Positions 3,993 to 28,527 of a stretch of 64,000 nucleotides of DNA are shown piece by piece. The notes below the pieces were generated by a model that was not told where the DNA came from, did no database searches, and was given only the letters and a program-made list of their open reading frames with translations. Source of the stretch: Ostreococcus lucimarinus (taxonomy: Eukaryota). Both the position numbers and the translations under genes were made by a program. Location of the stretch: assembly GCA_000092065.1 (NCBI GenBank), contig CP000592.1; one strand, given 5' to 3'. The number at the start of each line of letters is the position of its first letter. The first letter of the stretch is position 1.

Positions 3993-4024
3993 ACATTAGA
4001 GCTGTTGTATGCTATAGTAGTGGA

Positions 4025-7000
4025 TTAGACTTTGACTGAGCGCAGCGCGAGAAGTTCATTGAGACACGTGGTATGCGCTTCCGTGAGATTCAACACTTCT
4101 CTTTCAACATTTGAGATGTCTTTTTTAATCTCTCGCAGCTCACGCGCATTCTCCAGCTCTTGTACCTTGAGCTTGTCGCGTAAATCTTCTGTGCCTTGAC
4201 CATTATTCACAACCTTGTCTAAATCTTCCAGAACGATGAGCTTTCCAAACTTTCGGATCTGAGTCTCAGAGTATTTGCGTTGCAGACTCTGAAATTCTTT
4301 CGCCTTAGCGGAACGTTGCGCGATGAGCGAGGAGTGCTCTCGCTTTAACTCCTGCTGCTGACGTTTCAATTTTAAGACTTCTGCATCCCACTCTACGACT
4401 TTATTCTCAAGTTCTGCTAAGCGAGTCTTGGAGAAAATAATCATGTCGTCCATGTCGCCTTGACTCGTCTCGACGCAGCTCACCGGCAACACGAATGCAG
4501 TCCTGAGCCCGTTCAAACTTTGCTGCTTTACCTTCTCAAAAGCATCCGCATCTCTCTCGAGTACCCGTACGTTTTCCTCCAAACTTCGCAACTTTTTCAG
4601 TGCGGCATCGTGAATCTTTTTCTTCCCATCCAATGCCCGTTGTATTTCAGTTATTGCGTCCATGGCTTCGATTCTTTGCAAACGAAGATCGCACACGCGC
4701 TCGTAGACAGCACTGTCGCAACCTTTTGGGCAAGTGTCGCCATTTTCTTCGTCTGACGACGAATAGTACGAATCATCGTCAAAATCAGAGTCTAAGTCGG
4801 AATCGGAGTCACCTTTGTCGCTCTTTTGTTCGGTTTTATTGACGACGCGTTTGTGGAAAACTTTGAGCAATGCCGCTCGCGGGACGCCTGGAATCATGAA
4901 TTTGTCAAATGTCGCCTCGATTTCCGCTTTTACTCCGTTCTGCCCCTCTAATTTGGTCTGTTGATCGTTTACGGCCGTCTGGGCATTTTCTACCGCCGCA
5001 CGAGCGGTTTCGACCTCTTCCTTTGCTTGCCGTTGAGCATTTTGCATTTCGGTGTTCTTCACGTCATATTCAGGCATGACGCTCAGCTCGCGATGCACTA
5101 CAATACGAAAAAGTTCAATGACTTTACTTCGCGCGATGATATCTGCTTTTAGATGGCATAGCGAGATAAGATCTTCATCGGTGACAGCGTCCTTCGCATC
5201 GATGCAATCAAACTCTCGATTGAACCGGCTCTGGTTGCCGCGTAGTTGACCATCGACATATCTCAATTCGGAAAGTTTACCCTCCGTCGTTAATTTGTCT
5301 TCAGGTGGTACACGTGAATCCGGAACGCAACGCAATGGAAACCCATCGCCAAGATTGTCGCGTTTCAACGCTTCGCTGTCGTCTGTTTGGTCTTTCAAAG
5401 GCTCTGCCTTCTCCAATTTTCTCAACTCTTCGTTCCTCCGTAATCTTTCGAAGCGCCGTCGAGCCTCTGAACTCATTTCAGAGCCTTCGATGCTCTGTCT
5501 TTCGTGCGCATTTTCACTTATGCAAGTATTTTGCACATGAACGACACGCATCTCTTGTTCGCATTCATGAACTGTCGCCTCTGCGACCGTAGTTGTCTGC
5601 CAATCACCCTCGCTTCCAGCGCGCAACGCAAAAGATGAGCACGTCAAAGCTTCGCTAGATGAATGAATCATACGAGGAAGGGCCATTATTTTGTCGTAAT
5701 AACTTTTTTGCAGTTGATTTGAGACAGATTCAGCACACATAACTGAGCTTTGAAGCTTGTCGTGAGTCGCTTTTAACCAGTGTACTGAATCCTCGCGAAT
5801 TCGGCGCATTTGTGTATCGTCTACGAGAAGTTCTGCGCCAGAGATTCGCATCTCTCGAGGAAGTTTTGCATTTTCTTCAATGATGACATTGAATTCATCT
5901 CGACAGAGCGCCACCAAGCTCGAGAGTCGTATAAGTGCTGCCGCTTCTTCCTCGCTCAATTCCTTCGCGCGTTCTCGCTGCAGTACCTCTTCGATGGACG
6001 CGCACTGTGCGGAGAGTGTGTCGATCGCTTCGACTTCTGGATAGATGCACAGCGCCTCGTCGATTGAAGAGTGTGTGTTTGATGGAGAAGCATCGCTTAA
6101 CGCGTGTACTTCAAAAGATCCCGATTTACAGATTTTAACGCAGTAAGAATTATCATACGTTATCGCGCTGAAAGATTCATCAACGGCGTTCTTGGTTTCT
6201 ACATCGGTGGTAATACGAGGAGTGACATCGATTTCGTACGAATCTTTACGAGACTCACCCAAGTCACGATGGACGGCAAAGCAGTGCATCTCGTCCTCGA
6301 TTTGAGCACCAAAAATACTTTCACCATCCCAAAATATCTTCTTCGGGCGAGCACTCAGGCGTATGAAACCAATTGGCTCAAATTGCAACGTCGATGCGAA
6401 GGAAGATGAACTGAAAATAAACACAGTATTATTAGCAGCAGCGATTGCCAAATACTCACCATCAGAACTCCATGTGAACTGCTCGACGGCATGCGCGTGT
6501 GGCTTGAGCGCGAGAGCCAAGCGCCAAGAGGACGTGTTTCTCACGAGAACGCGAACGACACCATCGGCAAATCCAACGACGATACATCTCCCATCTTCAT
6601 TGACATTCAAAGGTACGTTAGTAAGTGCCGTCGCCGAACAGCTGAACCGACTTTTGTAGAGAAACGCACGGGATAAATAATCATAGCAGTGCACTTCTCC
6701 GATATTGTCGCAAGTGATCAAGTGAGTACTGTTCAGCGAAGTCTCGCATGCAGTGATGACACCACTGTGCGCAGAAACAACAGGACGCTCCATATCATCA
6801 TCGTCCAAAGAACACACTAACCCTCGCCCGCTGTCTTGAATGAATAACTTATTTTCAAGCGCGCAAATGTGGCGGATATTGGCTCCATCGATTGAGCGCT
6901 CTGAGATGGGTTTCATACAAACCACCCCTTTGCTTTGCGACGATATGACGCGACGAATCTCGTCAATATTCCATTCTCGAACCCACCCATCATCGCCCGC

Positions 7001-7798
7001 CGTGAGAATCACTGAACCGTTGTTGATATAAATCATCGTCTCGATCGAACCGCCGTGGCAGTCTTCATCGTCGCTCGACGCGTTTGCTCGCATTATTTTG
7101 TACTGAACGCGCCCATCGACCCAGATTAGTAGAGCGCCATACTCTGTGCTCGTCAAAATCATATCATTAAAGGGTAACTCCAACACGCACGTGATATTGG
7201 ACAGAGGTTCGCCGTTGAACTTTCCAAGAGTACCTTGTAACTTCAATCCAGTAAACGTCTTGACCATCTGCCAAAACTGAATGTGACCAGCGCCGTGAGT
7301 GATCATTCGCTCCGAGTTAGCGCCTAGGAAGGATAAGTCAAACACTTCTTGTCCATACGCTTTGGCACGAAGGACTGTCTTTGCTGTCTTCCAGTCCCAC
7401 AAAGTGAGCCAATAGTCTGGGAGCCCACTCACGCTCGCGAGAAGCTGTCCGTCTGGAGAAAATTTTCCAGTCGAGTAACACGCCGCGGCGCCGCCGTGAA
7501 TCGTGTTTACGAGCTCAAGTGAAGGGTAACTATATATTGATATTCGGGGCGCCGCACCATTCTCGCCGATCGCAATGTGCGTGCCATCTCCATCCACGGC
7601 GACCAAGCCGATATTGCCCCCCTCCGCGCTCCGCAGGTACGTCTGCCTTTGTGTTTTCACGTCTCGCAAGGTCAAGAGATTTCCAACAGTGTACGCCACG
7701 ACTGAATCGCGTACTCGAGTCAAGTTGCCCCGTCGCTTGAAATCAAATCCAAAGCTGCACGCCAGGCAACCATGCTCGAGAGACTTATTTTTAGCCAT
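4025..7798 (-). CDS. Cilia/flagella-associated WD-repeat plus coiled-coil protein (CFAP43/44/57-like)
   Basis: This is an uninterrupted 1257-aa ORF. The N-terminal half has WD/beta-propeller-type repeats (ISIYSYPSLE, YWLTLWDWKTAK, HGAGHIQFWQM). The C-terminal ~600 aa are heptad-rich coiled coil. Size and layout match axonemal CFAP WD proteins. The sequence is visibly AT-richer than its neighbours. Confidence 0.7.
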   Translation of the reverse strand: MAKNKSLEHGCLACSFGFDFKRRGNLTRVRDSVVAYTVGNLLTLRDVKTQRQTYLRSAEGGNIGLVAVDGDGTHIAIGENGAAPRISIYSYPSLELVNTIHGGAAACYSTGKFSPDGQLLASVSGLPDYWLTLWDWKTAKTVLRAKAYGQEVFDLSFLGANSERMITHGAGHIQFWQMVKTFTGLKLQGTLGKFNGEPLSNITCVLELPFNDMILTSTEYGALLIWVDGRVQYKIMRANASSDDEDCHGGSIETMIYINNGSVILTAGDDGWVREWNIDEIRRVISSQSKGVVCMKPISERSIDGANIRHICALENKLFIQDSGRGLVCSLDDDDMERPVVSAHSGVITACETSLNSTHLITCDNIGEVHCYDYLSRAFLYKSRFSCSATALTNVPLNVNEDGRCIVVGFADGVVRVLVRNTSSWRLALALKPHAHAVEQFTWSSDGEYLAIAAANNTVFIFSSSSFASTLQFEPIGFIRLSARPKKIFWDGESIFGAQIEDEMHCFAVHRDLGESRKDSYEIDVTPRITTDVETKNAVDESFSAITYDNSYCVKICKSGSFEVHALSDASPSNTHSSIDEALCIYPEVEAIDTLSAQCASIEEVLQRERAKELSEEEAAALIRLSSLVALCRDEFNVIIEENAKLPREMRISGAELLVDDTQMRRIREDSVHWLKATHDKLQSSVMCAESVSNQLQKSYYDKIMALPRMIHSSSEALTCSSFALRAGSEGDWQTTTVAEATVHECEQEMRVVHVQNTCISENAHERQSIEGSEMSSEARRRFERLRRNEELRKLEKAEPLKDQTDDSEALKRDNLGDGFPLRCVPDSRVPPEDKLTTEGKLSELRYVDGQLRGNQSRFNREFDCIDAKDAVTDEDLISLCHLKADIIARSKVIELFRIVVHRELSVMPEYDVKNTEMQNAQRQAKEEVETARAAVENAQTAVNDQQTKLEGQNGVKAEIEATFDKFMIPGVPRAALLKVFHKRVVNKTEQKSDKGDSDSDLDSDFDDDSYYSSSDEENGDTCPKGCDSAVYERVCDLRLQRIEAMDAITEIQRALDGKKKIHDAALKKLRSLEENVRVLERDADAFEKVKQQSLNGLRTAFVLPVSCVETSQGDMDDMIIFSKTRLAELENKVVEWDAEVLKLKRQQQELKREHSSLIAQRSAKAKEFQSLQRKYSETQIRKFGKLIVLEDLDKVVNNGQGTEDLRDKLKVQELENARELREIKKDISNVEREVLNLTEAHTTCLNELLALRSVKV

Positions 7799-7987
7799 AA
7801 CTTGAGAGGTGCGAGCAAACTCTGTTCAAGACTCACACGGGGCGATGCGATCCGTACGCGCGCGTGAGTGTATCGTGTGTGCGCGCGCGCGTTTGCTGTC
7901 ACTACTTCTTTTGCGCCACGTACGGCGTCGTCGAGTGCAGAATCATTTATGCTTGTATTACAAAATAACCGACGTCGGCTCGGGCGC

Positions 7988-9223
7988 TCACTTCCCCGAC
8001 ATTTCTGCGTTCAATTCAGCAAGCTTTTCTTCTTGTTCCAAAGCCTGCATGCCCCCGATCGCACCCTTGATGTCGCCGTCTAAGAAATTTTGAAGAGAGA
8101 AGTTAGCGCCGATGCGATGGTCCGACACGCGGCTATCTTTCCAGTTGTACGTTCTAATTTTTTCCGACCGAGACCCCGAGCCGACTTGCGATTTACGCTT
8201 GTCCGATACCGCTTTGCGCTGCTCTTCGAGCTGCAACTCAAATAATTTCGCGCGAAGAATTTGCATGGCACGAATGCGATTCTTCATTTGTGTACGTTCT
8301 TCCGTGCAGAACACGCGAATGCCGGTCGGCTTGTGCATCAGGTCGATAGCGGTTTCGACTTTGTTGACGTTTTGCCCACCCGCACCGCCGCTTCTGGCGG
8401 TGGAAATATCGAGGTCATTGTCGTCAATCTTCACCTCGACTTCGTCGACTTCAGGCATCACCGCGACCGTGGCCGTGGAAGTTTGAATGCGTCCTTGAGT
8501 TTCCGTCGCCGGCACGCGCTGCACGCGATGCACACCGGCTTCCCACTTGAGACTGCTGTACACGTCGTCGCCCTTTATCTCCACGACGATTTCCTTATAC
8601 CCGCCGGCGTCCGCCGGGTTGTTCGTCACGACCGACGTTTGCCATCCCTCGCGCTCGGCGAATCGCATATACATTCGATATAAATCCCCAGCCCAAATAC
8701 CAGCCTCATCCCCGCCAGTACCGGCGCGAATCTCGAGCATGATGTTCTTCTCGTCGAGCGGGTCCTTCGGCAGCAGCGCCAACGTCATGGTCTCCACCAG
8801 CGCATCACTCTCCGTCGTCAGCGCATCGATCTCTTCCTTCGCCATCGCCACCATCTCATCATCCCCAGCCGCATCCTTCGCCATCGCGCGCGCCTCGCTA
8901 ATCTCTTTCATGCACTCCTTGTACCGCGCGTACTGCTCCACCACGCTCGTCAGCTCCCCGAGCGCCTTGCTCAGCTTTTGAAACTCCTTCGGATCGCCCG
9001 TCACGCTCGGATCCGCCATGCGCTCGCTGATCTCGCCGTGCGTCCGCGTCGTCGCCTCGAGTTTTTGCACCAGAAACTCCGGAATGTCCACCGCGCGCGT
9101 TCGCACCCCTCGCCGCGTCGTCGTCGTCCCGCGCGCCGGCGCTCGTCCACCGTCCCGAGCGTTTTTCGCGCGCGCGTTCGCGCGCGACGCCGCGTTCGTC
9201 GCCGGCGACGCGCGCGCCATCAT
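7988..9223 (-). CDS. prfA: Organellar peptide chain release factor 1 (RF1-type)
   Basis: It carries the PxT anticodon tripeptide ([10 protein letters not shown]) and the GGQ motif ([11 protein letters not shown]). An R/A/T-rich presequence follows MMARASP (ATG 9223). The ORF is over-extended to 9688. Confidence 0.9.
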
Positions 9224-9557: not shown

Positions 9558-10658
9558 ATGACGCCCGCGGTGACGCGCGAGGACGCGCGCGAGAAAGTCC
9601 CCACGGTGTCGCTCGAACTGTACGCGAAAGATTTCGAAAAGTTTGTCCACGACCTGGGAGAGGCGTACGAGCGATACGGATTCGTCATCTTGGAAAATCA
9701 TGGGATCGATCTGGAACTCATCGAACGCGCGATGGAACGCTCGAAGGCGTTCTTTGCGTGCGATGAGGAATGTAAGAAGAAGTACACGCTGCGCGGGTTG
9801 GGCGGCGCGCGCGGGTACACGGCGTTCGGAGTGGAGACGGCGAAGGGAGCGAACGCGCCTGGTGCGTGAAGGCGATGCGAAAAGTGATACTTTTTTGTTT
9901 TGATGCGTCGCGCTATAGCGCGTGTGATGGATTCGACGACGCGATTCGTTTGACTGACGCGAAGGATAACGTCGCCTCTCGCGCGCGCAGATTTGAAAGA
10001 GTTTTGGCACCTCGGGCGAGACTTGCCGGCGGGCCATAAGTACGAGTCGACGATGCCGCCGAATGTGGATGACGTGGTGGAAGTCGAAGGGTTTAGCGAA
10101 GTGAATAAGCAAATCTTCAACGCTCTAGATGAGCTCGGGAATTGCGTGCTCGAGGCGCTGGCGGTGCATCTGGAACAACCGCGCGAGTATTTCGCAGATA
10201 AGACGAACGAAGGCAACAGTATTTTGCGTATCATTCACTATCCACCAATTCCGCCTGATGCTGCGGGGCGCGTGCGCGCTGGTGCGCACGAGGATATCAA
10301 TCTCATCACGCTCCTGCTCGGCGCCGACGAGGGTGGTTTGCAACTCTTGGGAAAGGATGGAGAGTGGCTCGAAGTCAACCCGCCTCCCGGATGCGTGACG
10401 TGCAACATCGGTGACATGCTGCAACGCCTGTCGAATCACAAGCTTCCTTCGACGACGCACCGTGTCGTGAATCCTCCCGCGGAACGGGCGCACATTCCTC
10501 GATATTCCATGCCATTCTTTTTACATCCAAATCCAGACTTCGTCATCAAAACGCTGGAGTCGTGCATTTCGGATCAGTATCCCAATCGCTATCCAGAGCC
10601 CATTAGCTCTGATGAATACTTGCAGCAACGCCTTCGAGAGATTAAACTCAAATCATGA
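9558..10658 (+). CDS. 2-oxoglutarate/Fe(II)-dependent oxygenase (two exons: 9558-9861 and 9991-10658)
   Basis: The HxD...H iron triad is present ([18 protein letters not shown]). Intron 9862-9990 has a GTGCGT donor, a CTGAC branch and a CAG acceptor. It joins ...GANAP|DLKEFWHLG in frame (972 nt total). Confidence 0.8.
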
Positions 10659-10764
10659 GTCCAAACGGATACATTTAGCACGCTGAACGATGCACATAGA
10701 AATAATAGCGCTACGACAAAATTTCATTTTGTAATGATGATGGTACATTGATCACACATTATCA

Positions 10765-11424
10765 CTAGTTCACGAGGTGTGCCGCGATCGTATCGTCTTC
10801 GATGATAAGATTTTCCATTTGCGGTGTCTCGTCGGCTTCTATAGCGCGGCAGATGTGAGTTTTGATGTCAAACTCATCGAGAAATTCATGAACCGTGAAG
10901 AGAAACTTCCTAGCATTTGCGACGATGCGAGTAAGACATTTGTCCATATTCACCGTATTCGGCTCTGCGTTCTCGAGAAGCTCGTAAGTGATGCGCGCGA
11001 TCGCGTTGACGACTGCGCTTTCGTCATAATCTTTGATTTCGAGATCGCTCGCGCTCTTTCCTTCGCCGCTGCCTACGACAGTTTGCAGGTCACTGAATAC
11101 TCTTTCGACGCCCTCTTCCGAAGAACACACATACGACGTCCAACGGTGAGAACTCCTGAGTGACTTCAGCACGCAGTCAATTTTTTTCGATGTATTTTCT
11201 AGCACGAGCAACGTGGAAGACTCGTATCGAATCATCAATCCTGTGTTTCCACAAACGTCTGTGACGCGCGCCTCGAGAGACTCGGATTCCCCGGAATCGT
11301 CCTCTATCGACTGACAAAACAGGAACACTCGGCACAAATAATCTGCAGGGTCTGAGCTAGCGTTGCGCTCTAGTCTTTCTTTCGCCGCCAGAATCACCGC
11401 AGGATCGCAATCGAACGATACCAT
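10765..11424 (-). CDS. Hypothetical protein (219 aa)
   Basis: A clean ATG-to-stop ORF with non-repetitive composition. It sits in a tight tail-to-tail arrangement with the oxygenase gene. No family is assigned with confidence. Confidence 0.5.
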   Translation of the reverse strand: MVSFDCDPAVILAAKERLERNASSDPADYLCRVFLFCQSIEDDSGESESLEARVTDVCGNTGLMIRYESSTLLVLENTSKKIDCVLKSLRSSHRWTSYVCSSEEGVERVFSDLQTVVGSGEGKSASDLEIKDYDESAVVNAIARITYELLENAEPNTVNMDKCLTRIVANARKFLFTVHEFLDEFDIKTHICRAIEADETPQMENLIIEDDTIAAHLVN

Positions 11425-11466
11425 GATGGTTTCGCTAAAAATAAATCCAACGCCGCAGCAGCACGT

Positions 11467-12255
11467 TTAACGCGGAATGATGAAGAGTCTTTCGCTCGGT
11501 TTACGATTCTTCAGCGAGTGAAAGTAATACACGTCTCCTTGTATCGCGCCAAAATCACCTTCAAACGTCGTGTGAAGCTCTGGGACAGTAAGAAGTTCTC
11601 GCAAGGACTCGCTCGAAGTGTCCAACCAAGCCAACAACGCGCAGGAGTCCAGAGATAACCAAAGCACGTTGCGTTGGCTCATGCCTTTTTCGTCCAAACA
11701 CAATGTGGAGTCGCATTGGCATTTTCCTAGATCAATGGGGAAGTTTTCATCGTCCTTCGCCGGATACTCTTTCGCGTGAAACAAGATTCCGAGTCGAACC
11801 ACAGACGACTCGTTCGTCGCCCGCCAAGCAAACGCGTGCGCATGAAACAGATCGAACCGATTTAGCGACGTCGAGGAAGACGATGACGCTGTTTCAAATA
11901 ATTCGACCATGTAAGCGTTGCTCTTGCGATCGCGCATCCGTCGTCCGTATCGTTCTTGCGTCAACTCGCACCCTCGACTCGCCGCGTTCTCGACATTTGG
12001 CACCGCGCGGTGGCGCCAATGCAGCCCATCACCCCATACCCCGGGCGCACGTACCATCGCGCACGGCGCCGGAGGCACACGCACAATCTTTCGCACGCCC
12101 TCGATGTCGTTCGTTCCTCGCGCGAGCGCATCCAACAGCTTTTGCGCGCTCGAGCGCCGTCGCTCTTCGCTCGACCCATCGGCGCGCGCACCGCGGACGC
12201 GCACGACGCGCGCGCGCGGCTTCACCGAAATCCACGTGGATATCGTCATTTGCAT
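11467..12255 (-). CDS. Hypothetical protein
   Basis: The C-terminal ~200 aa are non-repetitive (NVLWLSLDSCALLAWLD, DVYYFHSLKN). ATG 12255 (MQMTIST) was chosen because the upstream part of the ORF overlaps the divergent F-box gene and is low-complexity. Confidence 0.45.
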   Translation of the reverse strand: MQMTISTWISVKPRARVVRVRGARADGSSEERRRSSAQKLLDALARGTNDIEGVRKIVRVPPAPCAMVRAPGVWGDGLHWRHRAVPNVENAASRGCELTQERYGRRMRDRKSNAYMVELFETASSSSSTSLNRFDLFHAHAFAWRATNESSVVRLGILFHAKEYPAKDDENFPIDLGKCQCDSTLCLDEKGMSQRNVLWLSLDSCALLAWLDTSSESLRELLTVPELHTTFEGDFGAIQGDVYYFHSLKNRKPSERLFIIPR

Positions 12256-16214: not shown

Positions 16215-18578
16215 ATGGTGATGGTAATCGCCCTGACGTGCGCGCTCGAGACGCCGAGAGGAGCGCGCGCGGGGAACGCGTTCGCCAGGCAAACGCCGGT
16301 CGGGGACTTGGGATTCCTCGGCGTGCCGGGACCGCCGGGAAGAAGCGGACACAAGGCGGTGGTGACGGATGATTCGCAAATGTTCATCTTCGGCGGACGC
16401 GCGAAGTCGACGAACGGGGATTTTTTGAACGACTTTTGGATGTACGACTGGGAGACGGGCTCGTGGGTGGCGTACACGCCAAACGAATTGTTGTGCGATC
16501 AGTGTTCAACGTGTCAGGACACGGGAGCAACGTGTTACGATTGGACGGGATTGCGACCTTATAGCGAGCCGACGCTGAAGGAAGGGAAAAATAGGAAGGA
16601 GCGTTCGATACCGAGCGGGCGAATCCATCACGGGATGGCGCTCACGCTCAACCGCGAGACTGGGATTCGGGATACCATCATCATGTATGGAGGCGAGAGC
16701 ATCGATTGCACTGATTACTGCGACGATGTTTGGCACTACAATATTCCGAACAATCTATGGAGCAAAAGATCCTTCACCGGACAGGAACAGCGACCCGTGA
16801 GACGATGGAAGCACGCCATGACGGATTACTACGACGCTGTCTTCTTATTTGGAGGACACTCGCAAAGATTACTCTCGACGACTGCGAATGCGGCGAACCA
16901 GACCAACGATACATCGTTTTATTACGACACTGATGTCGTTTATGACGGCACTAGGCCGTTATTCATGGAAGATCTTTGGGTTTACAACGCTACGAATCGC
17001 CAGTGGGAGTACCTCGAGCCTTCATGCACGACGTGTTCTAGTACCACGACAGAGAGTGACGGTACGGCGGACCGAGATTTATACGGCCCTCGTGGCCGAA
17101 CTGGTGCAAGCCTGGTGAGCTATGAAGACTCTTTGTACCTTTTTGGCGGCTACTCCTATGGAGGTGAATCAAACTTCAAAGAGCTGTATCCCGTACCCAA
17201 GAATGAAACGATCCGTCAGTTGCTGTACCCATCGCTGGAGAGTAAGTATTTTCTTAACGACCTTTGGCGGTACGACATTTTGACAAACTCTTGGACTGAG
17301 TTAATGCCGAGAACAAATTACACTGCGAAACCTGAGCGGAGGCACGGACATTCTGCCACAGTTGTGTTGAAAGATTCTGTCGCGGTGATGCTCATTCAGG
17401 GAGGTCGCACGTGGGAAGACGAAATCGGAGATATGTGGCAGTATAACATTTCATCCAACGTGTGGACTGAGATCGTTCCAGAAGGTGATTATCCCTCACG
17501 ACGAGAAGGATCGACAATGGTCTCTGTTGGTCAGACTTCGACATTTAGATCTGGTTCATCACGTCAGGCTGGTCGCGCGTTGATATTCGGAGGTCATGGT
17601 TGTCTGAAAGGCAAGACATATGCTGAAGCTGTGGCCGCTGCAGCCGCTGCAAGTACGGGTACGGTCGGTAGAACATATGTGGACGATCTTTCTGGGGTGA
17701 CTGTGGACTGGCAAAGCAAGTATAGTGTAACTACGACGGGTAAGCTTGTGATAAACGGCGTGACGATGGAAGACGCCAGCGATCCTACATTTTTGGCTGT
17801 TGAAGATGGAACAACACAAGTGCAAACAGTCACGAGCTATGGTGAGACGGTTTGTACTGAAGAACTCAGTGATCTTTGGCAGTATCTTCCAGATGAATGC
17901 CCGAACGATTGCAGTCGATCTGGTACGTGTAGCTTCAACACGTGCATGTGCTCAAAAGGGTATTACGGCAACGATTGCTCGTTGCCAGAGTGTCCTCAGT
18001 CAAATTGCACATTTGATAGCGTTGGACGTAAAATGGTGTGTAATCACTGCAGTGGCCGAGGTGAGTGTAGTAACGGTGTGTGCGTGAACTGCGCTTACCC
18101 GTCGAGTGGCACCTATTGCGAAATTAAAGTTGGTTTGTGTACGACATGCGAGTGTTACGAAGACAACGGTGAAGAACCCCCGGAGGGCTTGGACTGTGGT
18201 TTGGTGTTGGTTTGCCCGAAGAATCCTTCTGTTCCAAGTTCTGCAGAGTGCTCGGGCAACGGTATTTGTGTAGAAGGCGTGTGTAACTGCTATCCTGGGT
18301 TCACTGAAAGCATGGTGGTTACTCGAGTCGGCGACGCTCGATTTCCTGCCAATCTCGACGTGAATGGCACAGTTGTTCCCGCCCCAGAATGCGGTTATGA
18401 TGAGACGGCGCCCAACAAGTACAACAAAGCTCTAGTGACAGATGCGTGTATACCGACGTACATCAAAGATTGTGGTGACTTTCTGTACGAGATGGCGGGT
18501 TCAAGAAGGACTGCTGGACTCGGCGTCGCCGCACTCATAGCGATACTGACGTTTCAAGCATTGGTCGACCTCGGGTAA
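16215..18578 (+). CDS. Type I membrane protein with Kelch-type beta-propeller repeats and EGF-like Cys-rich modules (attractin/MEGF8-like)
   Basis: A signal-like MVMVIALTCALE is followed by repeated GH..V....MFIFGG / LYLFGG / LIFGG kelch signatures. EGF-like modules read CPNDCSRSGTCSFNTCMCSKGYYGNDC and CSGRGECSNGVCVNC. The C-terminal TM segment is GLGVAALIAILTFQALV. The start is uncertain (ORF open from 15780). Confidence 0.72.
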   Translation: MVMVIALTCALETPRGARAGNAFARQTPVGDLGFLGVPGPPGRSGHKAVVTDDSQMFIFGGRAKSTNGDFLNDFWMYDWETGSWVAYTPNELLCDQCSTCQDTGATCYDWTGLRPYSEPTLKEGKNRKERSIPSGRIHHGMALTLNRETGIRDTIIMYGGESIDCTDYCDDVWHYNIPNNLWSKRSFTGQEQRPVRRWKHAMTDYYDAVFLFGGHSQRLLSTTANAANQTNDTSFYYDTDVVYDGTRPLFMEDLWVYNATNRQWEYLEPSCTTCSSTTTESDGTADRDLYGPRGRTGASLVSYEDSLYLFGGYSYGGESNFKELYPVPKNETIRQLLYPSLESKYFLNDLWRYDILTNSWTELMPRTNYTAKPERRHGHSATVVLKDSVAVMLIQGGRTWEDEIGDMWQYNISSNVWTEIVPEGDYPSRREGSTMVSVGQTSTFRSGSSRQAGRALIFGGHGCLKGKTYAEAVAAAAAASTGTVGRTYVDDLSGVTVDWQSKYSVTTTGKLVINGVTMEDASDPTFLAVEDGTTQVQTVTSYGETVCTEELSDLWQYLPDECPNDCSRSGTCSFNTCMCSKGYYGNDCSLPECPQSNCTFDSVGRKMVCNHCSGRGECSNGVCVNCAYPSSGTYCEIKVGLCTTCECYEDNGEEPPEGLDCGLVLVCPKNPSVPSSAECSGNGICVEGVCNCYPGFTESMVVTRVGDARFPANLDVNGTVVPAPECGYDETAPNKYNKALVTDACIPTYIKDCGDFLYEMAGSRRTAGLGVAALIAILTFQALVDLG

Positions 18579-18818
18579 ATCATTACTACTAGAAGCTAGC
18601 AAACCATAATGTGATGAATTCTCGAAACTTAGAAGATTTTGACCCCTGCACGAGGGAGATTCGTCGTGCACGTCGCAGCGACCCGCTCGAGACAAAGATT
18701 GCCTAGCACCAAAGCAACAGACGTCACAGTGTGAGGGGCGGCGAAGCGCTAGCGCCGCGTGTGTGACTCGATAAAGACGAAAGAGTCGGTCTCGCACAGT
18801 CCTTAGCCTCACGCTGCG

Positions 18819-19742
18819 ATGACGACGCTGGAGGCGAGCTCTAACGAACGCCGCGCCGGCGCCGCTGAAACGATTTCTGAACAGCTCCTCGTTGAGGAAC
18901 TGGTGTCGTCGGAGTCCGAGGGCGACAACGTTCGCTCGGTTGACATACAAGCCATTGCGCGTCGAGTGCAGCGAGCGAATAGGACTCTGTCCGCTGAAAC
19001 CGCGGCCACGATCAGTGGAGAGCAGGAAGAGAAACTTGCCCTCGCTGCAGTGCATCTTTGGCGGGCAAAGATGCACGTGCGGCTTTCAAATCTTTACTCG
19101 GAGAAGGCCTGGGATAGCAAAAAGTTTCCACGTAAATTTTATTTGAAGTACAGGGGCTTCGGACCGACACATCAGCGTAGCGACTTGGTTGAATTTAGAA
19201 AGCTCTACTTGCGGTGTGCGTTATCCAGCTCCGAGCGTGCCGTTGAATTGGCACCGTTCTCCTACGAATGCGTGATGTTGAAGGCATGCATATTGTGTCT
19301 ACTCATTAGTTTCGGAGGATATATGCGCGACATTTACTGCGAGAAAGCGTTGACGAGTTGCCGGCGAGCAATGTCGCTGCACCGCATGCCGCAAATTGCC
19401 GACAACAGAGAAAGAGCCATCCTGTACAACTCTACGCAAGATAGAACGAGCGCGCAGGCGACGGAATCAAGCCGATCGGATGCACGTATGGCGTCCTTGT
19501 GGAATATGGCCATTTTCGCCGCTCACACAGTCGCGACGAAACGAGGGTCTTGGGATGCGGATACGTTGTGGGCTGACAGACAAAATTCACTCGGTTCAGG
19601 CACATCGTGTGAGCTGCCATCAGGCGATTTACCGACGAGCTCGCTCGAAGAACTCGTTTCATGGAACATGTGGGGTAATAATTGGACTGGTTTGGGAGAG
19701 AATAGCACGCTGCAGGATGTACTCGCTGACTGCAAGGAATAG
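18819..19742 (+). CDS. Hypothetical protein (307 aa)
   Basis: An ATG-to-stop ORF with non-repetitive, AT-richer sequence. No family was recognised. Confidence 0.45.
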   Translation: MTTLEASSNERRAGAAETISEQLLVEELVSSESEGDNVRSVDIQAIARRVQRANRTLSAETAATISGEQEEKLALAAVHLWRAKMHVRLSNLYSEKAWDSKKFPRKFYLKYRGFGPTHQRSDLVEFRKLYLRCALSSSERAVELAPFSYECVMLKACILCLLISFGGYMRDIYCEKALTSCRRAMSLHRMPQIADNRERAILYNSTQDRTSAQATESSRSDARMASLWNMAIFAAHTVATKRGSWDADTLWADRQNSLGSGTSCELPSGDLPTSSLEELVSWNMWGNNWTGLGENSTLQDVLADCKE

Positions 19743-20285
19743 ATAGATATCTGATTTAATTTAGATGTATTATTAGTAGCACTCATTTTCGATCGATACG
19801 CGCATCATCGCGGAAGTTCGACAGGATCGCAACAATAAACTCTTGTATACATTTTATCCCGTATTTTCGATCGAAATCAAGAGCAAAACGCATCGTGCCA
19901 AGGTACAAATACAAATTAAAGTTTGGGCGATGGTCAAAATAAATAATTTAATTCAACAGCTATCGGCGAATAAGTCGCCGAAAGAGATCTCAATGAAGCC
20001 ACGGAGGCGAACTTCTCCTCGTATTGTCAGACTGACGCTTGTAACGCTGATTCTCCGCGTCGTCGTGCATTGAGGCGTCGATATGAGCGATCGAGTTGTT
20101 AATTATTCTCACCTGACGAACATTAATTAAAAAAGTAATTCCGATCTTCGTGTTATCGAGAATCGCACGTCAAATCTCGATGCAGACGCCCACGAACGCA
20201 CGTCAGCGACGATAGCGCAAAAAACTTAACGGAAATGACGGAAACGGGCGAAGGAGTAAAGCAATTACTTTCGATATTTATTTAA

Positions 20286-23405: not shown

Positions 23406-23507
23406 CGTCGTCGTCGTCGTCGTCGCGGGTGTGACGTCGAAGTTCGTAAACCCCCGTCCGGGCGCCCCGAATCGAACGTCCCGGCGCGATTGCCGAAATC
23501 GGGAAAA

Positions 23508-23651
23508 ATCGAACAATCGAACAGTCGAAAAGTCGAACAATCGAACAGTCGAAACATCGAAAAGTCGAACAATCGAAAAGTCGAAACATCGAACAGTCGA
23601 AAAGTCGAACAATCGAAAAGTCGAAACATCGAACAGTCGAAAAGTCGAACC
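23508..23651. repeat. Tandem array of 18 copies of an 8-bp unit RTCGAAMM, with a 40-bp higher-order repeat
   Basis: The unit phase was verified copy by copy (ATCGAACA, GTCGAAAA, GTCGAAAC and similar). Segments 23572-23611 and 23612-23651 are identical except for the last base. The array lies between the divergent BolA-like (ATG 23405) and hydrolase (ATG 23757) genes. Confidence 0.97.
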
Positions 23652-25258: not shown

Positions 25259-25473
25259 GACGGCCGCACCGCGCGCGACGCCGTGCCGACGCGACGGCCG
25301 CGCGCGCGTCGCGCGCGTCGCATCCCGTCGCGCGCGTCGCATCCGTCGGTCCGTCGTCCGCCGTCTCGCCCGTCGGCACCGCCCCGCGAGGGACTCGCCC
25401 GAGGGTCGCGAACCGCGAAATTTTAGCCGAACGTGACGTGGCGGGCGAGGATGAAGGACGTGAATGAGAATGA

Positions 25474-27729
25474 ATGAAACGCGTGGGTCCGATGATGACG
25501 CGCGCCCGACCGACAGTCCGAGGCGCGCGCGCGGCGACGGTGCGTCGTGGGAGCGACATGACGGCGCGCGACGCCGCGCGCGACGCGGAGGCGGCGGAAT
25601 CGCGCGAAAGCGACGCGCGGGGGGGGGATTCCGAACGCCCGGGGACGCCCGGACGGGACGACGACGACGACGCGCGCGATGGGATTTGGAACACGGCTGA
25701 GTTGCATCAGAGACTGATGCACTTGAACGTACACTCGAGCACGTCGAGCACGAGCTCGAGAAAGTCGGGCGATCCGAGCGCGAGCGGAGACGGGCTGCAG
25801 ACGACGACGAGCGGGTCCGCGAGCGGCGCGGGGGCGTCGAGCGGGACGCCGACGGGGGTGCTGCCGACGAAGTTGACGTCGAAAATGACGACAAAGGAGG
25901 TGAAATTCGGTGCTCAGAGTTTTGATTCGCTGAATCAGTACATATTGATCAAGGATCTCGGACGAGGATCGCATTCAAAGGTGAAGTTGGCGATGAATCA
26001 ACAGGATAATCAGCTCTACGCGGTGAAGTGGACGGACTCTCGAGTGAACTCCTGGAAAGCCGTTCGCAAGGAGATTGCCGTGCTGAAGAAGTTGCATCAT
26101 CCAAACATTCGTACTTTACACGAGGTCATCGATGACGAGTTCAAAAAGGAACTCATCTTAGTCTTGGAGTATTGCCAAACGGGACCCATTTTCACGCGTT
26201 TCAGCACGGTGGCGGTGGACGAAAAGGTTTTACTAGGATACGCTCGCGACATCGTGCTCGGATTGGATTACTTGCATTCGCTGCACATCGCGCACATGGA
26301 TCTTAAACCAGAAAATATGCTTCTGTGCACCGATGGCGAAGTCAAGCTCGCAGACTTTGGCGTGAGTTTCATACACGACTTGGTTTCGTCCGACGGCGTT
26401 GAGAAACGACTTGTGGGTACGCCGGCGTTTTTAGCGCCCGAAGTTCTTTCGGAAGACGGTTACGACCCATTCAAGGCAGATATATGGTCCCTGGGGGTGT
26501 GTTTCTACAATATGGCTATGGGCAAACTGCCGTTCCCAGGCAAGACGGTGTACCAAATCGTCGCAAAAGCGCGCGCAAACGAATTAGTATTCGACGAAGA
26601 CGCGCCGCTCTCAGAAAATTTCAAGGATCTTTTGCGCAACATGATGTGCGTTGACCCCGCGAAACGGCTGGATATTGCTGGCGTGATGCAGCATCTTTGG
26701 ATCACGCGCGATGGGGAAGAGCCTCTCGCGCGACCTCTCACCGAGCTGCCGCACGCCATCGTGGAGCTCACCGAGGAAGAAATCGCGAGCGCCATCAGAA
26801 CCGATCCGCTTGCCGCTTTATTGCAGCCTTCCTTCAACTTGGTGGAGTTCAACGATGGCGATATTCTTATGCACAAAGGTGCTATCGGTGAAGTGATGTA
26901 TTTCATCAACAAAGGTCACTGTGAGGTGTTGATGGACGCGATCGGAGTTGATTTAGACACCATCGATCGAGAACGCGAGACGGACGTTTTGGTCGTGCGA
27001 GAGGCTGGAGAGATTGTGGGGGAAATTGCGTTCCTTAAAGCGATGCAAGGGATCCGAGAGAAGTCGCACGTGCACGGCTATCGCACAGCGACAGTCAGGG
27101 CGAAGGGGCCGGTTGAGTGCCTCGCTGTAACCGTCCAAGACATGTTGACGGCGCTCGGTAAGGACGAACTTTCTCGAGTACGCCTCGTGCGCAGTGCGAG
27201 TTTCAAACTCGACCAAAACGAGGAGGTTCGCCTGCAGCTCAACATGAGAACCTCTAGAACGAGCAATGACTCGGACAGGAGCGAAGAAGCGCATCCTTTT
27301 AATCCGACTCGGAGGATCAGTGTGCTGTACGCCGAGGATAGCATGCCGACGCAGATGATTGTCAAAGCCTTTTTGAGGAAACTTGGCGACGTCGACGTAA
27401 CGATCGCCGCCGACGGGAAAAAGGCATTGGATGCGCATAAATCTATGAACTCTAACTTTGACTTGATTCTCATGGATTGTCAAATGCCTGTGATGGATGG
27501 TTTGGAAGCGACGACGCGCATTCGCGAACTCGACTCCGCCAAATCTGTGGTACCCATCGTGGGCGTGTCTTCTGGTGTTGAAGGAATGAGTGAAAAAGAG
27601 TGCCGCGACGTCGGGATGAATGACTTCGTCCTCAAACCACTGAACGTGCGGAAGTTGACAGATGTCATTCGCAAGACGCTACCTGAGCTCTTCGTCGAAG
27701 ATCCAGTTTCAAAAGACGAGAGAATCTGA
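25474..27729 (+). CDS. Ser/Thr protein kinase fused to a cyclic-nucleotide-binding domain and a response-regulator receiver domain
   Basis: Kinase motifs are GRGSHSKVKLA, AVK, HMDLKPEN, DFG and GTPAFLAPE. The CNB motif is GEIVGEIAFL....RTATVRA. The REC domain reads VLYAEDS......LILMDCQMPVMDG....KP. The start codon is uncertain within the GC-rich first ~250 nt. Confidence 0.85.
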   Translation: MKRVGPMMTRARPTVRGARAATVRRGSDMTARDAARDAEAAESRESDARGGDSERPGTPGRDDDDDARDGIWNTAELHQRLMHLNVHSSTSSTSSRKSGDPSASGDGLQTTTSGSASGAGASSGTPTGVLPTKLTSKMTTKEVKFGAQSFDSLNQYILIKDLGRGSHSKVKLAMNQQDNQLYAVKWTDSRVNSWKAVRKEIAVLKKLHHPNIRTLHEVIDDEFKKELILVLEYCQTGPIFTRFSTVAVDEKVLLGYARDIVLGLDYLHSLHIAHMDLKPENMLLCTDGEVKLADFGVSFIHDLVSSDGVEKRLVGTPAFLAPEVLSEDGYDPFKADIWSLGVCFYNMAMGKLPFPGKTVYQIVAKARANELVFDEDAPLSENFKDLLRNMMCVDPAKRLDIAGVMQHLWITRDGEEPLARPLTELPHAIVELTEEEIASAIRTDPLAALLQPSFNLVEFNDGDILMHKGAIGEVMYFINKGHCEVLMDAIGVDLDTIDRERETDVLVVREAGEIVGEIAFLKAMQGIREKSHVHGYRTATVRAKGPVECLAVTVQDMLTALGKDELSRVRLVRSASFKLDQNEEVRLQLNMRTSRTSNDSDRSEEAHPFNPTRRISVLYAEDSMPTQMIVKAFLRKLGDVDVTIAADGKKALDAHKSMNSNFDLILMDCQMPVMDGLEATTRIRELDSAKSVVPIVGVSSGVEGMSEKECRDVGMNDFVLKPLNVRKLTDVIRKTLPELFVEDPVSKDERI

Positions 27730-27768: not shown

Positions 27769-28527
27769 TTATTGTTTCGTTTTCGCCATCTTCTTCGGCA
27801 TCGTCAGCGCCGCGGCACTCCACAGTGCGCTCTCGAGCTTGGCTGGTGTGAGGTCATCTGCGCCGAGATCGTCGCATTTACGGTGCAGAGCTTTCATAAA
27901 CTCGTGATACCGCGCTGCGGAGTATCTATCATTTCCCCCGTTTCCGACGACGACGGCAAGCGCCTCGTCGCTAAAGAATGGAAACCGCTCGTCGCCGACC
28001 GCCATGAGAATCGACGCCGTGGCTGGTCCGCATCCTTTCAGCGCGATGAATGGTGCCATAGCATCGACGATTTTACCCTTACTATTTCTTTTGCCCCCTT
28101 CGCTCGCGTGTGCGAGTCGATACGCCTCTCGACTCGCGCTCTCCACGTCGCGTTCCGACAACGCTTGCGCGTACTTCATCAACCCAGGTCTCGTTTTCCC
28201 TCGCGCCAGCTTCCACTCCACCACGCGCACGTACTCATCCTTTTTTATGTATCCCCAATCATCGCTCGTCGCGCTCGTCGCGCGTCTTTGCGCGATGGTT
28301 TTCGGAAGTTCTTTGCGCACGAACGCATCCAACTTGGATAACCGCTCGCCTAGATTCAACGCTCGCAAGCGCTCGTCGTACGCCGCCGCGTGCGCTCGCC
28401 ACTGTTCTCGATCCCCGCCGTTCCAAAGCTTTATCGCGCCCTCGTGCGCGATCGGTGGCATCGTCGCGCGATCGGGACGACGACGCGGCGCCACACTCTG
28501 ACGCGTCGTCGTCCCGTCTCGTCCCAT
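27769..28527 (-). CDS. Conserved hypothetical protein with a helix-hairpin-helix-like LKGCGPATASILMAV motif
   Basis: A 252-aa ORF with non-repetitive sequence. An alternative start is MPPIAHEG at 28461. Confidence 0.5.
   Translation of the reverse strand: MGRDGTTTRQSVAPRRRPDRATMPPIAHEGAIKLWNGGDREQWRAHAAAYDERLRALNLGERLSKLDAFVRKELPKTIAQRRATSATSDDWGYIKKDEYVRVVEWKLARGKTRPGLMKYAQALSERDVESASREAYRLAHASEGGKRNSKGKIVDAMAPFIALKGCGPATASILMAVGDERFPFFSDEALAVVVGNGGNDRYSAARYHEFMKALHRKCDDLGADDLTPAKLESALWSAAALTMPKKMAKTKQ

Follow-up and report, generated by a model that had tools for sequence, protein, structure and literature searches.

A CaMKK/GRIK-class kinase with predicted cyclic-nucleotide and phosphorelay modules in Ostreococcus lucimarinus

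Results

We analyzed an open reading frame (ORF) at positions 25474-27729 (+) of a 64,000-nucleotide stretch of Ostreococcus lucimarinus DNA (assembly GCA_000092065.1, contig CP000592.1; hereafter the window). The ORF is unbroken, encodes 751 amino acids plus a stop, and is the longest ORF of Ol12g01600, a gene named 'REC-CAMK'. Three domains follow one another in it: a Ser/Thr kinase, a cyclic-nucleotide-binding (CNB) domain and a response-regulator receiver (REC). All three scored above the Pfam gathering scores in a hidden Markov model search, with a significance well past what chance would give and in agreement with an initial annotation made from the sequence. Our comparisons suggest that the kinase belongs to the CaMKK/GRIK class, that the CNB domain sits where CaMKK has its calmodulin switch, and that relatives with kinase and CNB domains lack the receiver. 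These three points are new. The gene and its architecture are not, having already been catalogued as the putative response regulator 'REC-CAMK' (PMC12704426). By analogy with CaMKK, the protein would be a kinase under C-terminal autoinhibition gated by cyclic nucleotide (cNMP) and by a LOV-HK/Rhod-HK to HPt phosphorelay, a reading whose chances we put at about even.

The features of the ORF, with AlphaFold (AF2) results and predicted local distance difference test (pLDDT) values where relevant, are:

25474..25878 (+): N-terminal Ser/Arg/Asp-rich region, residues 1-135; poorly conserved, 17-36% identity to relatives
25942..26703 (+): Ser/Thr protein kinase domain of the CaMKK/GRIK class, residues 157-410; Pfam Pkinase (PF00069) 206.6 bits, E 6e-61, above gathering score
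26293..26316 (+): catalytic loop HMDLKPEN, residues 274-281; non-RD, Met replacing the HRD Arg
26704..26826 (+): post-kinase segment, residues 411-451 (…VELTEEEIASAIRTDPLAALLQ); homologous to the CaMKK stretch leading into the autoinhibitory, calmodulin-binding helix
26842..27156 (+): CNB β-barrel domain, residues 457-561; Pfam cNMP_binding (PF00027) 36.5 bits against a cut-off of 27.5, E 4.9e-9
27019..27090 (+): phosphate-binding cassette GEIAFLKAMQGIREKSHVHGYRTA, residues 516-539; Gly-Glu and Arg-Thr-Ala conserved, with ~10 extra residues between them
27157..27243 (+): long helix after the CNB barrel (C-helix/lid position), residues 562-590; helix in AF2, model residues 430-455
27244..27309 (+): linker, residues 591-612; non-conserved, 16-30% identity to relatives, pLDDT < 50
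27322..27669 (+): REC domain, residues 617-732; Pfam Response_reg (PF00072) 72 bits, E 5.6e-20, above gathering score

The kinase domain belongs to the CaMKK/GRIK class

The closest solved structure to the kinase domain was CaMKK2 (6cmj, E 7.7e-51, 176 bits). The next families in the Protein Data Bank (PDB) search (BRSK, CIPK, LKB1, MARK and DAPK) scored ~38 bits lower. The closest named single-kinase relative was a Physcomitrium protein annotated GRIK1 (42% identity, 213 bits). No AGC kinase was found among the best 60 PDB matches, and Pfam detected no Pkinase_C domain. The Arg/Pro-rich insert between β3 and αC, a CaMKK feature, was absent, the query being gapped there in the 6cmj alignment. 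These comparisons place the kinase in the CaMKK/GRIK class and not among AGC kinases. The initial annotation was thus right to call the kinase CaMKK-like and non-RD, and its framing of the protein as a rearranged cAMP- or cGMP-dependent kinase (PKA or PKG) fell away, since a C-terminal CNB domain appears to be an old green-lineage feature of the CaMKK/GRIK class. REC-CAMK shares with PKA and PKG the coupling of a CNB domain to a Ser/Thr kinase. Those proteins combine an AGC kinase with tandem CNB domains that are N-terminal or on a separate subunit, whereas here we observed a CaMKK/GRIK-class kinase, a single C-terminal CNB domain, a receiver and no pseudosubstrate.

The kinase motif set consists of the Gly-rich loop GRGSHS, K185, E200, D276, N281, D294-F-G and A321-P-E. 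Across 16 full-length members, down to 45% identity, the residues G163, G165, K185, E200, H274-M275-D276, K278, N281 and D294-F-G were invariant. K185, E200, D276, N281 and D294-F-G stayed so when receiver-less outgroups were added (31-sequence alignment). All of the non-redundant family members (32/32) carried HMD, so that Met takes the place of the Arg that precedes the catalytic Asp in RD kinases. Outside the family, most kinase+CNB relatives had HRD. Trebouxia and Botryococcus had HGD instead, Tetraselmis shared HMD and an unnamed sequence had HHD, so that the RD Arg is lost repeatedly among relatives. On these residues, we predict that the kinase is catalytically competent and non-RD. The motifs quoted in the initial annotation were all present (HMDLKPEN at 274, DFG at 294, APE at 321, GEIVGEIAFL at 512, RTATVRA at 537 and LILMDCQMPVMDG at 664).

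The 2014 O. tauri kinome paper lists the ortholog under the old ID Ot12g01620 in the family 'CK2' (PMC4143559, Additional file 5), and its architecture is described in neither the main text nor the supplements of that paper. Because CaMKK2 is the best structural relative, the 'CK2' label looks like a misclassification, and this could be why the survey overlooked the protein.

The CNB domain sits at the position of the CaMKK calmodulin switch

We compared the stretch after the kinase with CaMKK, using a comparison protein (P0245) that scores 376 bits to CaMKK1. Residues 429-451 (VELTEEEIASAIRTDPLAALLQ) aligned with CaMKK VTVTEEEIENCVRVIPRLDTLILVK, and the VTEEE…IP.L.T segment was conserved as in CaMKK. 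From that segment CaMKK continues into …AMGHRKRFGNPF. The CaMKK peptide VRVIPRLDTLILVKAMGHRKRFGNPFR is the exact chain crystallized with Ca2+/calmodulin (1IQ5_B in PDB 1IQ5 and 1CKK_B in PDB 1CKK). We did not find the basic amphipathic calmodulin-binding helix in REC-CAMK: the place of …LILVKAMGHRKRFGNPF (1IQ5_B) holds the acidic/neutral LLQPSFNLVEFNDGD, which opens the CNB barrel. The barrel begins exactly where CaMKK has the basic half of its autoinhibitory, calmodulin-binding helix. By alignment, therefore, the CNB domain occupies the position of the CaMKK autoinhibitory calmodulin switch.

Animal CaMKK1/2 and REC-CAMK have in common a regulatory element directly C-terminal to the kinase and the post-kinase 'VTEEE…P.L..L' segment. 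CaMKK1/2 have HRD, the Arg/Pro-rich insert and the basic calmodulin-binding helix half (…KAMGHRKRFGNPF, 1IQ5_B), whereas the Ostreococcus protein has HMD, a CNB barrel and an added receiver. The ISME J 2025 paper (PMC12704426) calls the kinase 'calmodulin kinase'; our analysis instead points to the CaMKK/GRIK class and found no calmodulin-binding segment. Judged by its sequence, a protein without that segment is misleadingly named a 'calmodulin kinase'.

The CNB cassette keeps its contact residues and carries an insertion

We modeled the CNB region with AF2 (pLDDT 73, predicted template modeling score (pTM) 0.66) and compared the model with solved structures using Foldseek. The model matched the CNB domains of TAX-4, CNGA channels, HCN2, Mtb CRP, PKG I and PKA RIα (probability 1.0, E 1.6e-10, TMq ~0.64). 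Pfam and Foldseek together recovered the eight-stranded CNB barrel fold.

The cassette residues G516, E517, R537 and A539 were invariant in 31 aligned sequences, outgroups included, and residue 538 was Thr, Ser or Asn within the family. The β2-β3 glycines were also invariant. The Arg-Thr-Ala of this cassette resembles that of PKG and CNG channels. The Glu-to-Arg spacing is 9-10 residues in PKA, CAP and HCN; here it was 20, the family ranged over ~14-23, and the relatives from Nephroselmis and P0213 had 10. In the AF2 model, the extra residues formed an extended 12-residue cassette helix and a loop. The initial annotation had called the cassette intact. This stands for the contact residues G516-E517 and R537-T538-A539, which are conserved; it does not stand for the length, as the insertion of ~10 residues gives a non-canonical spacing. 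We also considered whether HMD and the long cassette were specific to Mamiellales. This was ruled out by HMD in Tetraselmis and by cassettes of intermediate length in Mesostigma, Chlorokybus and Riccia.

The receiver keeps its switch residues and follows a helix phosphorylated in O. tauri

The receiver residues E621-D622, the phospho-acceptor D668 (nucleotides 27475-27477), S699/S700, F718 and K721-P722 were invariant in the 16 full-length members, except that residue 718 was Phe or Tyr; the phospho-switch residues are thus in place. The sequence around residue 664 (LILMDCQMPVMDG) provides the phospho-acceptor context. The closest solved receivers were those of SLN1 (8phx, E 4e-19), AHK5 and CKI1, which are hybrid histidine-kinase receivers that partner HPt proteins, and D668 aligned with the acceptor-Asp context of the SLN1 receiver. 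The predicted acidic pocket and acceptor Asp were therefore both recovered, and the alignment put the CNB Glu and Arg and the REC Asp in conserved, invariant columns, which favors the initial annotation.

The linker before the receiver (residues 591-612) is probably flexible, given its low model confidence. The helix that precedes it, at the CNB lid position, contains residues 574-586 (window 27193-27231), a stretch that matches the O. tauri phosphopeptide SASFKLDQNEEVR at every residue. Either residue 1 or residue 3 of this peptide carries the phosphate, corresponding to S574 or S576, and an Arg is at -3 of S576. The phosphopeptide peaks at ZT16 in O. tauri (fold change 2.57, P = 6.8e-4, ANOVA; PMC10540734 Table S2). 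The O. tauri ortholog, ostta12g01580, was also detected in a deep diel proteome (PMC8484446 supplement), and the annotation quoted for it in the phosphoproteome names all three domains (PMC10540734 Table S2). O. tauri therefore makes the protein, and its helix following the CNB barrel is phosphorylated there.

The three-domain form is found in Mamiellales

We identified ~75 clusters (90% identity) that share the precomputed Pfam architecture kinase + CNB + receiver, at 46-99% identity to the query. The three-domain protein occurred in Ostreococcus, Bathycoccus, Micromonas-like and Mantoniella sequences. Among them are Bathycoccus prasinos CAL6419685.1, a transcript of Mantoniella beaufortii and another two MMETSP transcripts marked as complete. 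Each complete MMETSP transcript (Mantoniella and two other relatives) contains the three domains, and the reading frame was unbroken in >30 non-redundant sequences (45-99% identity). Splitting of the ORF into separate genes, a test set beforehand, was not observed: the complete transcripts span the three domains, and O. tauri peptides are assigned to a single three-domain model. Between genera, identity was 57% for the kinase, 51% for the CNB domain and 53% for the receiver; it was 16-19% for the N-terminus and the CNB-REC linker. The three domains are about equally conserved.

An exhaustive phmmer search covered 1.84 billion representatives, and the best 150 matches were inspected. One full-length representative, a member of the REC-CAMK family, matched contiguously over kinase, CNB domain and receiver, and three more matches were fragments of the family. 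No three-domain protein from outside the family was found among these 150. Matches that scored best in the receiver were multi-receiver hybrid histidine kinases and not kinase fusions.

Proteins with kinase and CNB domains and no receiver were found in Prasinoderma, Nephroselmis, Crustomastix (a non-Mamiellales member of Mamiellophyceae), Tetraselmis (weak CNB match), Ostreobium, Trebouxia, Botryococcus and the streptophytes Mesostigma, Chlorokybus and the liverwort Riccia. Like REC-CAMK, they have a CaMKK-like kinase followed by the post-kinase segment and, C-terminally, by a CNB domain with Gly-Glu…Arg-x-Ala. They differ in that they lack the receiver, most keep HRD and several have a canonical-length cassette; their Pfam cNMP_binding scores were 54-68 bits compared to 36.5 here. 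This distribution across green algae and a liverwort suggests that the kinase+CNB form is old in the green lineage, and it is evidently ancestral to REC-CAMK. The receiver appears to be a lineage-specific addition, found only in Mamiellales.

GRIK1/2 (SnAK), the family named in the Physcomitrium annotation, are the plant kinases that activate SnRK1 and SOS2. In published descriptions, GRIKs have neither a CNB nor a receiver domain. In the Physcomitrium protein annotated 'GRIK1 isoform X6' (P0098), the tail (residues ~370-440) could be aligned to the N-terminal half of the CNB domain (…FQAGEYAKGQGKQGNKSCFMNCSKCEILVDA) and gives no Pfam CNB match. This GRIK-like kinase of a land plant may thus retain the decayed remains of a CNB domain.

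Discussion

Relation to the published record

The REC-CAMK genes listed in PMC12704426 are Bathy07g03200, ostta12g01580, Od12g02250, Ol12g01600, Ostme07g01530, Mipuc09g01490 and Mipur06g01570. That paper describes REC-CAMK as a receiver protein whose effector is a CaMK, and finds it in every Mamiellales genome examined; in O. tauri it is among four additional putative response regulators and is one of five receiver proteins. The legend of its Supplementary Fig. 3 names the PT_KIN and cNMP domains of REC-CAMK. The novelty implied by the initial annotation was accordingly lost, as the family had been published with both domains drawn. The same paper gives no function and no residue-level analysis, and its main text does not discuss the cNMP domain. 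Our literature searches found no functional work on REC-CAMK, and gene IDs led to the ISME J paper alone. Searches that combined CNB, receiver, kinase and Micromonas, or GRIK/SnAK and Ostreococcus, returned nothing relevant. Because the gene and its domain composition are already published, the remaining value of our analysis lies in specific, testable hypotheses and not in discovery of the architecture.

Proposed mechanism

Non-RD kinases are generally independent of activation-loop phosphorylation. REC-CAMK lacks the HRD Arg, so its kinase is probably not reliant on such phosphorylation and its control should be allosteric. We propose that the C-terminal module would restrain the kinase in the way that the CaMKK regulatory helix does. 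Binding of cAMP or cGMP to the CNB domain would then relieve the inhibition, in the role that Ca2+/calmodulin has in CaMKK. A ligand is physiologically available in O. tauri, where cAMP climbs after light-on and both cyclin A synthesis and S-phase commitment depend on it; no effector of this cAMP is known (PMC2873908).

The second gate would be Asp668, phosphorylated by the single HPt (product of Ol08g04140; ostta08g04240 in O. tauri). The O. tauri inventory stops at two histidine kinases and a single HPt (PMC4343026). The input to Asp668 is most simply a LOV-HK/Rhod-HK to HPt relay, a partnership suggested by this small two-component inventory: the HPt would be fed by LOV-HK (blue light) and Rhod-HK (green light), the only histidine kinases known in these algae. 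Because the receiver hangs on a non-conserved, low-confidence linker, it may act by docking, undocking or dimerizing rather than through rigid coupling. A third, diel layer of control could come from phosphorylation at Ser574/576, in the helix at the lid position. It is plausible that cNMP and His-Asp phosphorelay signals are integrated in one polypeptide. The idea that the Ostreococcus rhodopsin histidine kinase might carry a cyclase domain able to supply cGMP found no confirmation in the papers and was not used.

The output would be phosphorylation of the activation-loop Thr of SnRK1 or of other CaMK-like kinases, which is likely by homology with CaMKK and GRIK/SnAK and is the weakest step of the scheme. 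Through such an output, energy signaling or cell-cycle commitment could come to depend on light quality and on the light-driven cAMP signal.

Weighing the alternatives

Several observations weigh against a doubly gated CaMKK-like kinase. AF2 modeling leaves the inter-domain geometry unsettled (pTM 0.51), so that the proposed autoinhibition rests on the CaMKK analogy. The CNB sequence resembles solved CNB domains weakly (best E 2e-4), and AF2 confidence across the domain is moderate (pLDDT 50-87). The cassette insertion of ~10 residues varies in length within the family; taken with the weak similarity and the moderate model confidence, it means that ligand binding could be lost or altered. The assignment of SnRK1 as a substrate draws on kinase-family similarity alone.

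These points bear on the possibility that the CNB domain no longer binds cyclic nucleotide and is a KCNH-like CNB-homology module with a structural, autoinhibitory or dimerizing role. The phosphorelay would then be the sole input, and REC-CAMK a plain response regulator with a kinase output. The Glu-to-Arg spacing (~14-23 in the family, 10 in canonical-length relatives), the variable insertion sequence, a Pfam score of 36.5 bits where outgroup kinase+CNB proteins reach 54-68 bits, and the weak similarity to solved CNB domains are consistent with such degeneration. However, degenerate CNB-homology domains usually lose the cassette Arg. In this family, the ribose/phosphate-contacting Gly-Glu and Arg-x-Ala are invariant in 31/31 sequences, as are the β2-β3 glycines; the CNB domain is as conserved as the kinase, and its barrel fold was recovered. 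We regard a degenerate CNB domain as possible, though on the unlikely side. A receiver that mainly takes up phosphate as a sink, or competes for it, within the LOV-HK/Rhod-HK to HPt relay, and so tunes phosphorylation of TOC1 and other response regulators while cNMP alone regulates the kinase, seems improbable to us. It would fit the position of the receiver on a non-conserved linker (pLDDT < 50), the ancestral kinase+CNB form that works without a receiver in other green lineages, and the one HPt that serves five receiver proteins. Yet the fusion is retained in every Mamiellales genome examined, a free-standing receiver would do equally well, and the full switch set (S699/S700, Phe/Tyr 718 and K721), needless for a pure sink, is kept.

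Loss of the HRD Arg could also indicate a pseudokinase or scaffold that signals by partner binding. The catalytic-loop Arg is Met in all members, and the third Gly of the Gly-rich loop is Ser (GRGSHS). But lack of the RD Arg normally leaves kinases active, no variation is seen in the VAIK Lys, αC Glu, catalytic Asp, Asn, DFG or APE, and close relatives have HGD, HHD or HRD in otherwise identical cores, which leaves a pseudokinase very unlikely. Least credible of all is that the three domains are an artefact of read-through between adjacent genes or of unrecognized introns. Some metagenome calls in the same 90% cluster are short 'CheY-like/CRP-like' fragments, and annotated starts vary by species (M82 in O. 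lucimarinus and the residue-140 equivalent in O. tauri). The short calls fit truncation at contig ends, however; the frame is unbroken in the >30 non-redundant sequences, complete transcripts carry all three domains, the single O. tauri gene model lists them, and the phosphopeptide maps between the CNB domain and the receiver. Conservation and transcript evidence thus led us to reject both the pseudokinase and the gene-fusion artefact.

Significance

Mamiellales (Ostreococcus, Bathycoccus and Micromonas) are globally abundant picophytoplankton with a very small signaling kit, in which two histidine kinases and a single HPt serve five receiver proteins. Of the proteins we found, REC-CAMK alone links this phosphorelay to Ser/Thr phosphorylation, and it also carries a predicted cyclic-nucleotide sensor. 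If the proposed mechanism is true, REC-CAMK would be a compact node for light color, a light-dependent cAMP signal and possibly SnRK1 energy signaling. It would also be an example from nature of a kinase class that exchanged its calmodulin switch for one operated by cyclic nucleotide.

A broader reading, which we find doubtful, joins these points with the kinase relationships. REC-CAMK would be the Mamiellales GRIK/SnAK ortholog and the ancestral green form a cNMP-gated kinase+CNB protein, its CNB domain standing in for the calmodulin binding of animal CaMKK; land-plant GRIKs would have lost the CNB domain, Mamiellales would have added the receiver, and the cAMP effector still sought for light-dependent S-phase commitment would be REC-CAMK. 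If true, this would wire SnRK1 energy and cell-cycle signaling directly to blue/green light sensing by LOV-HK and Rhod-HK through HPt, and to the dawn cAMP pulse.

Gene model and genomic context

The Ol12g01600 'REC-CAMK' coding sequence is annotated on chromosome 12 at 249,717-251,729 (supplementary tables, ISME J 2025, PMC12704426). It opens with ATGCACTTGAACGTACACTCGAGC (MHLNVHSS), which corresponds to ORF residue 82 (nucleotide 25717). Its length of 2,013 nucleotides equals 751 - 81 = 670 codons plus a stop and agrees with the ORF from Met82. The published coding sequence thus matches the ORF from residue 82 onward, and the window therefore belongs to O. lucimarinus chromosome 12.

A TGA stop lies directly 5' of the first ATG of the ORF. 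Candidate starts are M1, M7, M8 and M29, in addition to the annotated M82 (nucleotide 25717). Residues 70-81 (GIWNTAELHQRL) are conserved in other Ostreococcus clades, and M82 is Val in several of them. These data suggest that the true translation start is probably upstream of Met82 and that the annotated start is too far downstream. In the O. tauri ortholog, the annotated start is the equivalent of residue 140. An 8-codon upstream ORF (MKDVNENE*, window 25451-25477) overlaps the first ATG of the main ORF by 4 nucleotides and may bear on the choice of start codon.

We compared the N-termini of seven relatives (P0056, P0067, P0086, P0107, P0355, P0371 and P0075) with window 25474-25560. Most relatives had N-termini that resemble myristoylation or palmitoylation sites (MGPCLS, MGCGNS, MGCCLS, MGACVS and MGCYAS). 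The Bathycoccus N-terminus, MSFFSSCFYCF, resembles the S-acylated CFGCFG N-terminus of Arabidopsis GRIKs. Many algal relatives thus have an MGxC or Cys/Phe-rich N-terminus; the Ostreococcus ORF has no such acylation-like motif. No upstream exon with an acylation motif was evident in the 150 bp between the neighboring gene and the ORF, where we found the 8-codon upstream ORF alone.

An identical protein was present on a public assembly (Logan) contig, and assemblies of marine metagenomes contained a near-identical variant in 404 blocks. The gene order abhydrolase, Costars, kinase, unknown gene and mitochondrial carrier was retained in a relative at 70% identity. Immediately 3' of the kinase gene and convergent with it lies a 252-amino-acid ORF (window 27769-28527, -) with no Pfam match; a gene of 212-252 amino acids was called at the equivalent position in all related loci.

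Elsewhere in the window, we observed an A-rich tandem repeat at 23503-23650 (period 16 or 24 nucleotides, ~6-9 copies, 83-87% match). The repeat sits between a BolA-like gene (-) and the abhydrolase gene (+), which are divergent, and long spurious ORFs run through it on both strands. GC content was 0.475-0.51 in window 4001-8000, 10001-12000 and 18001-20000, compared to ~0.60 in the rest of the window.

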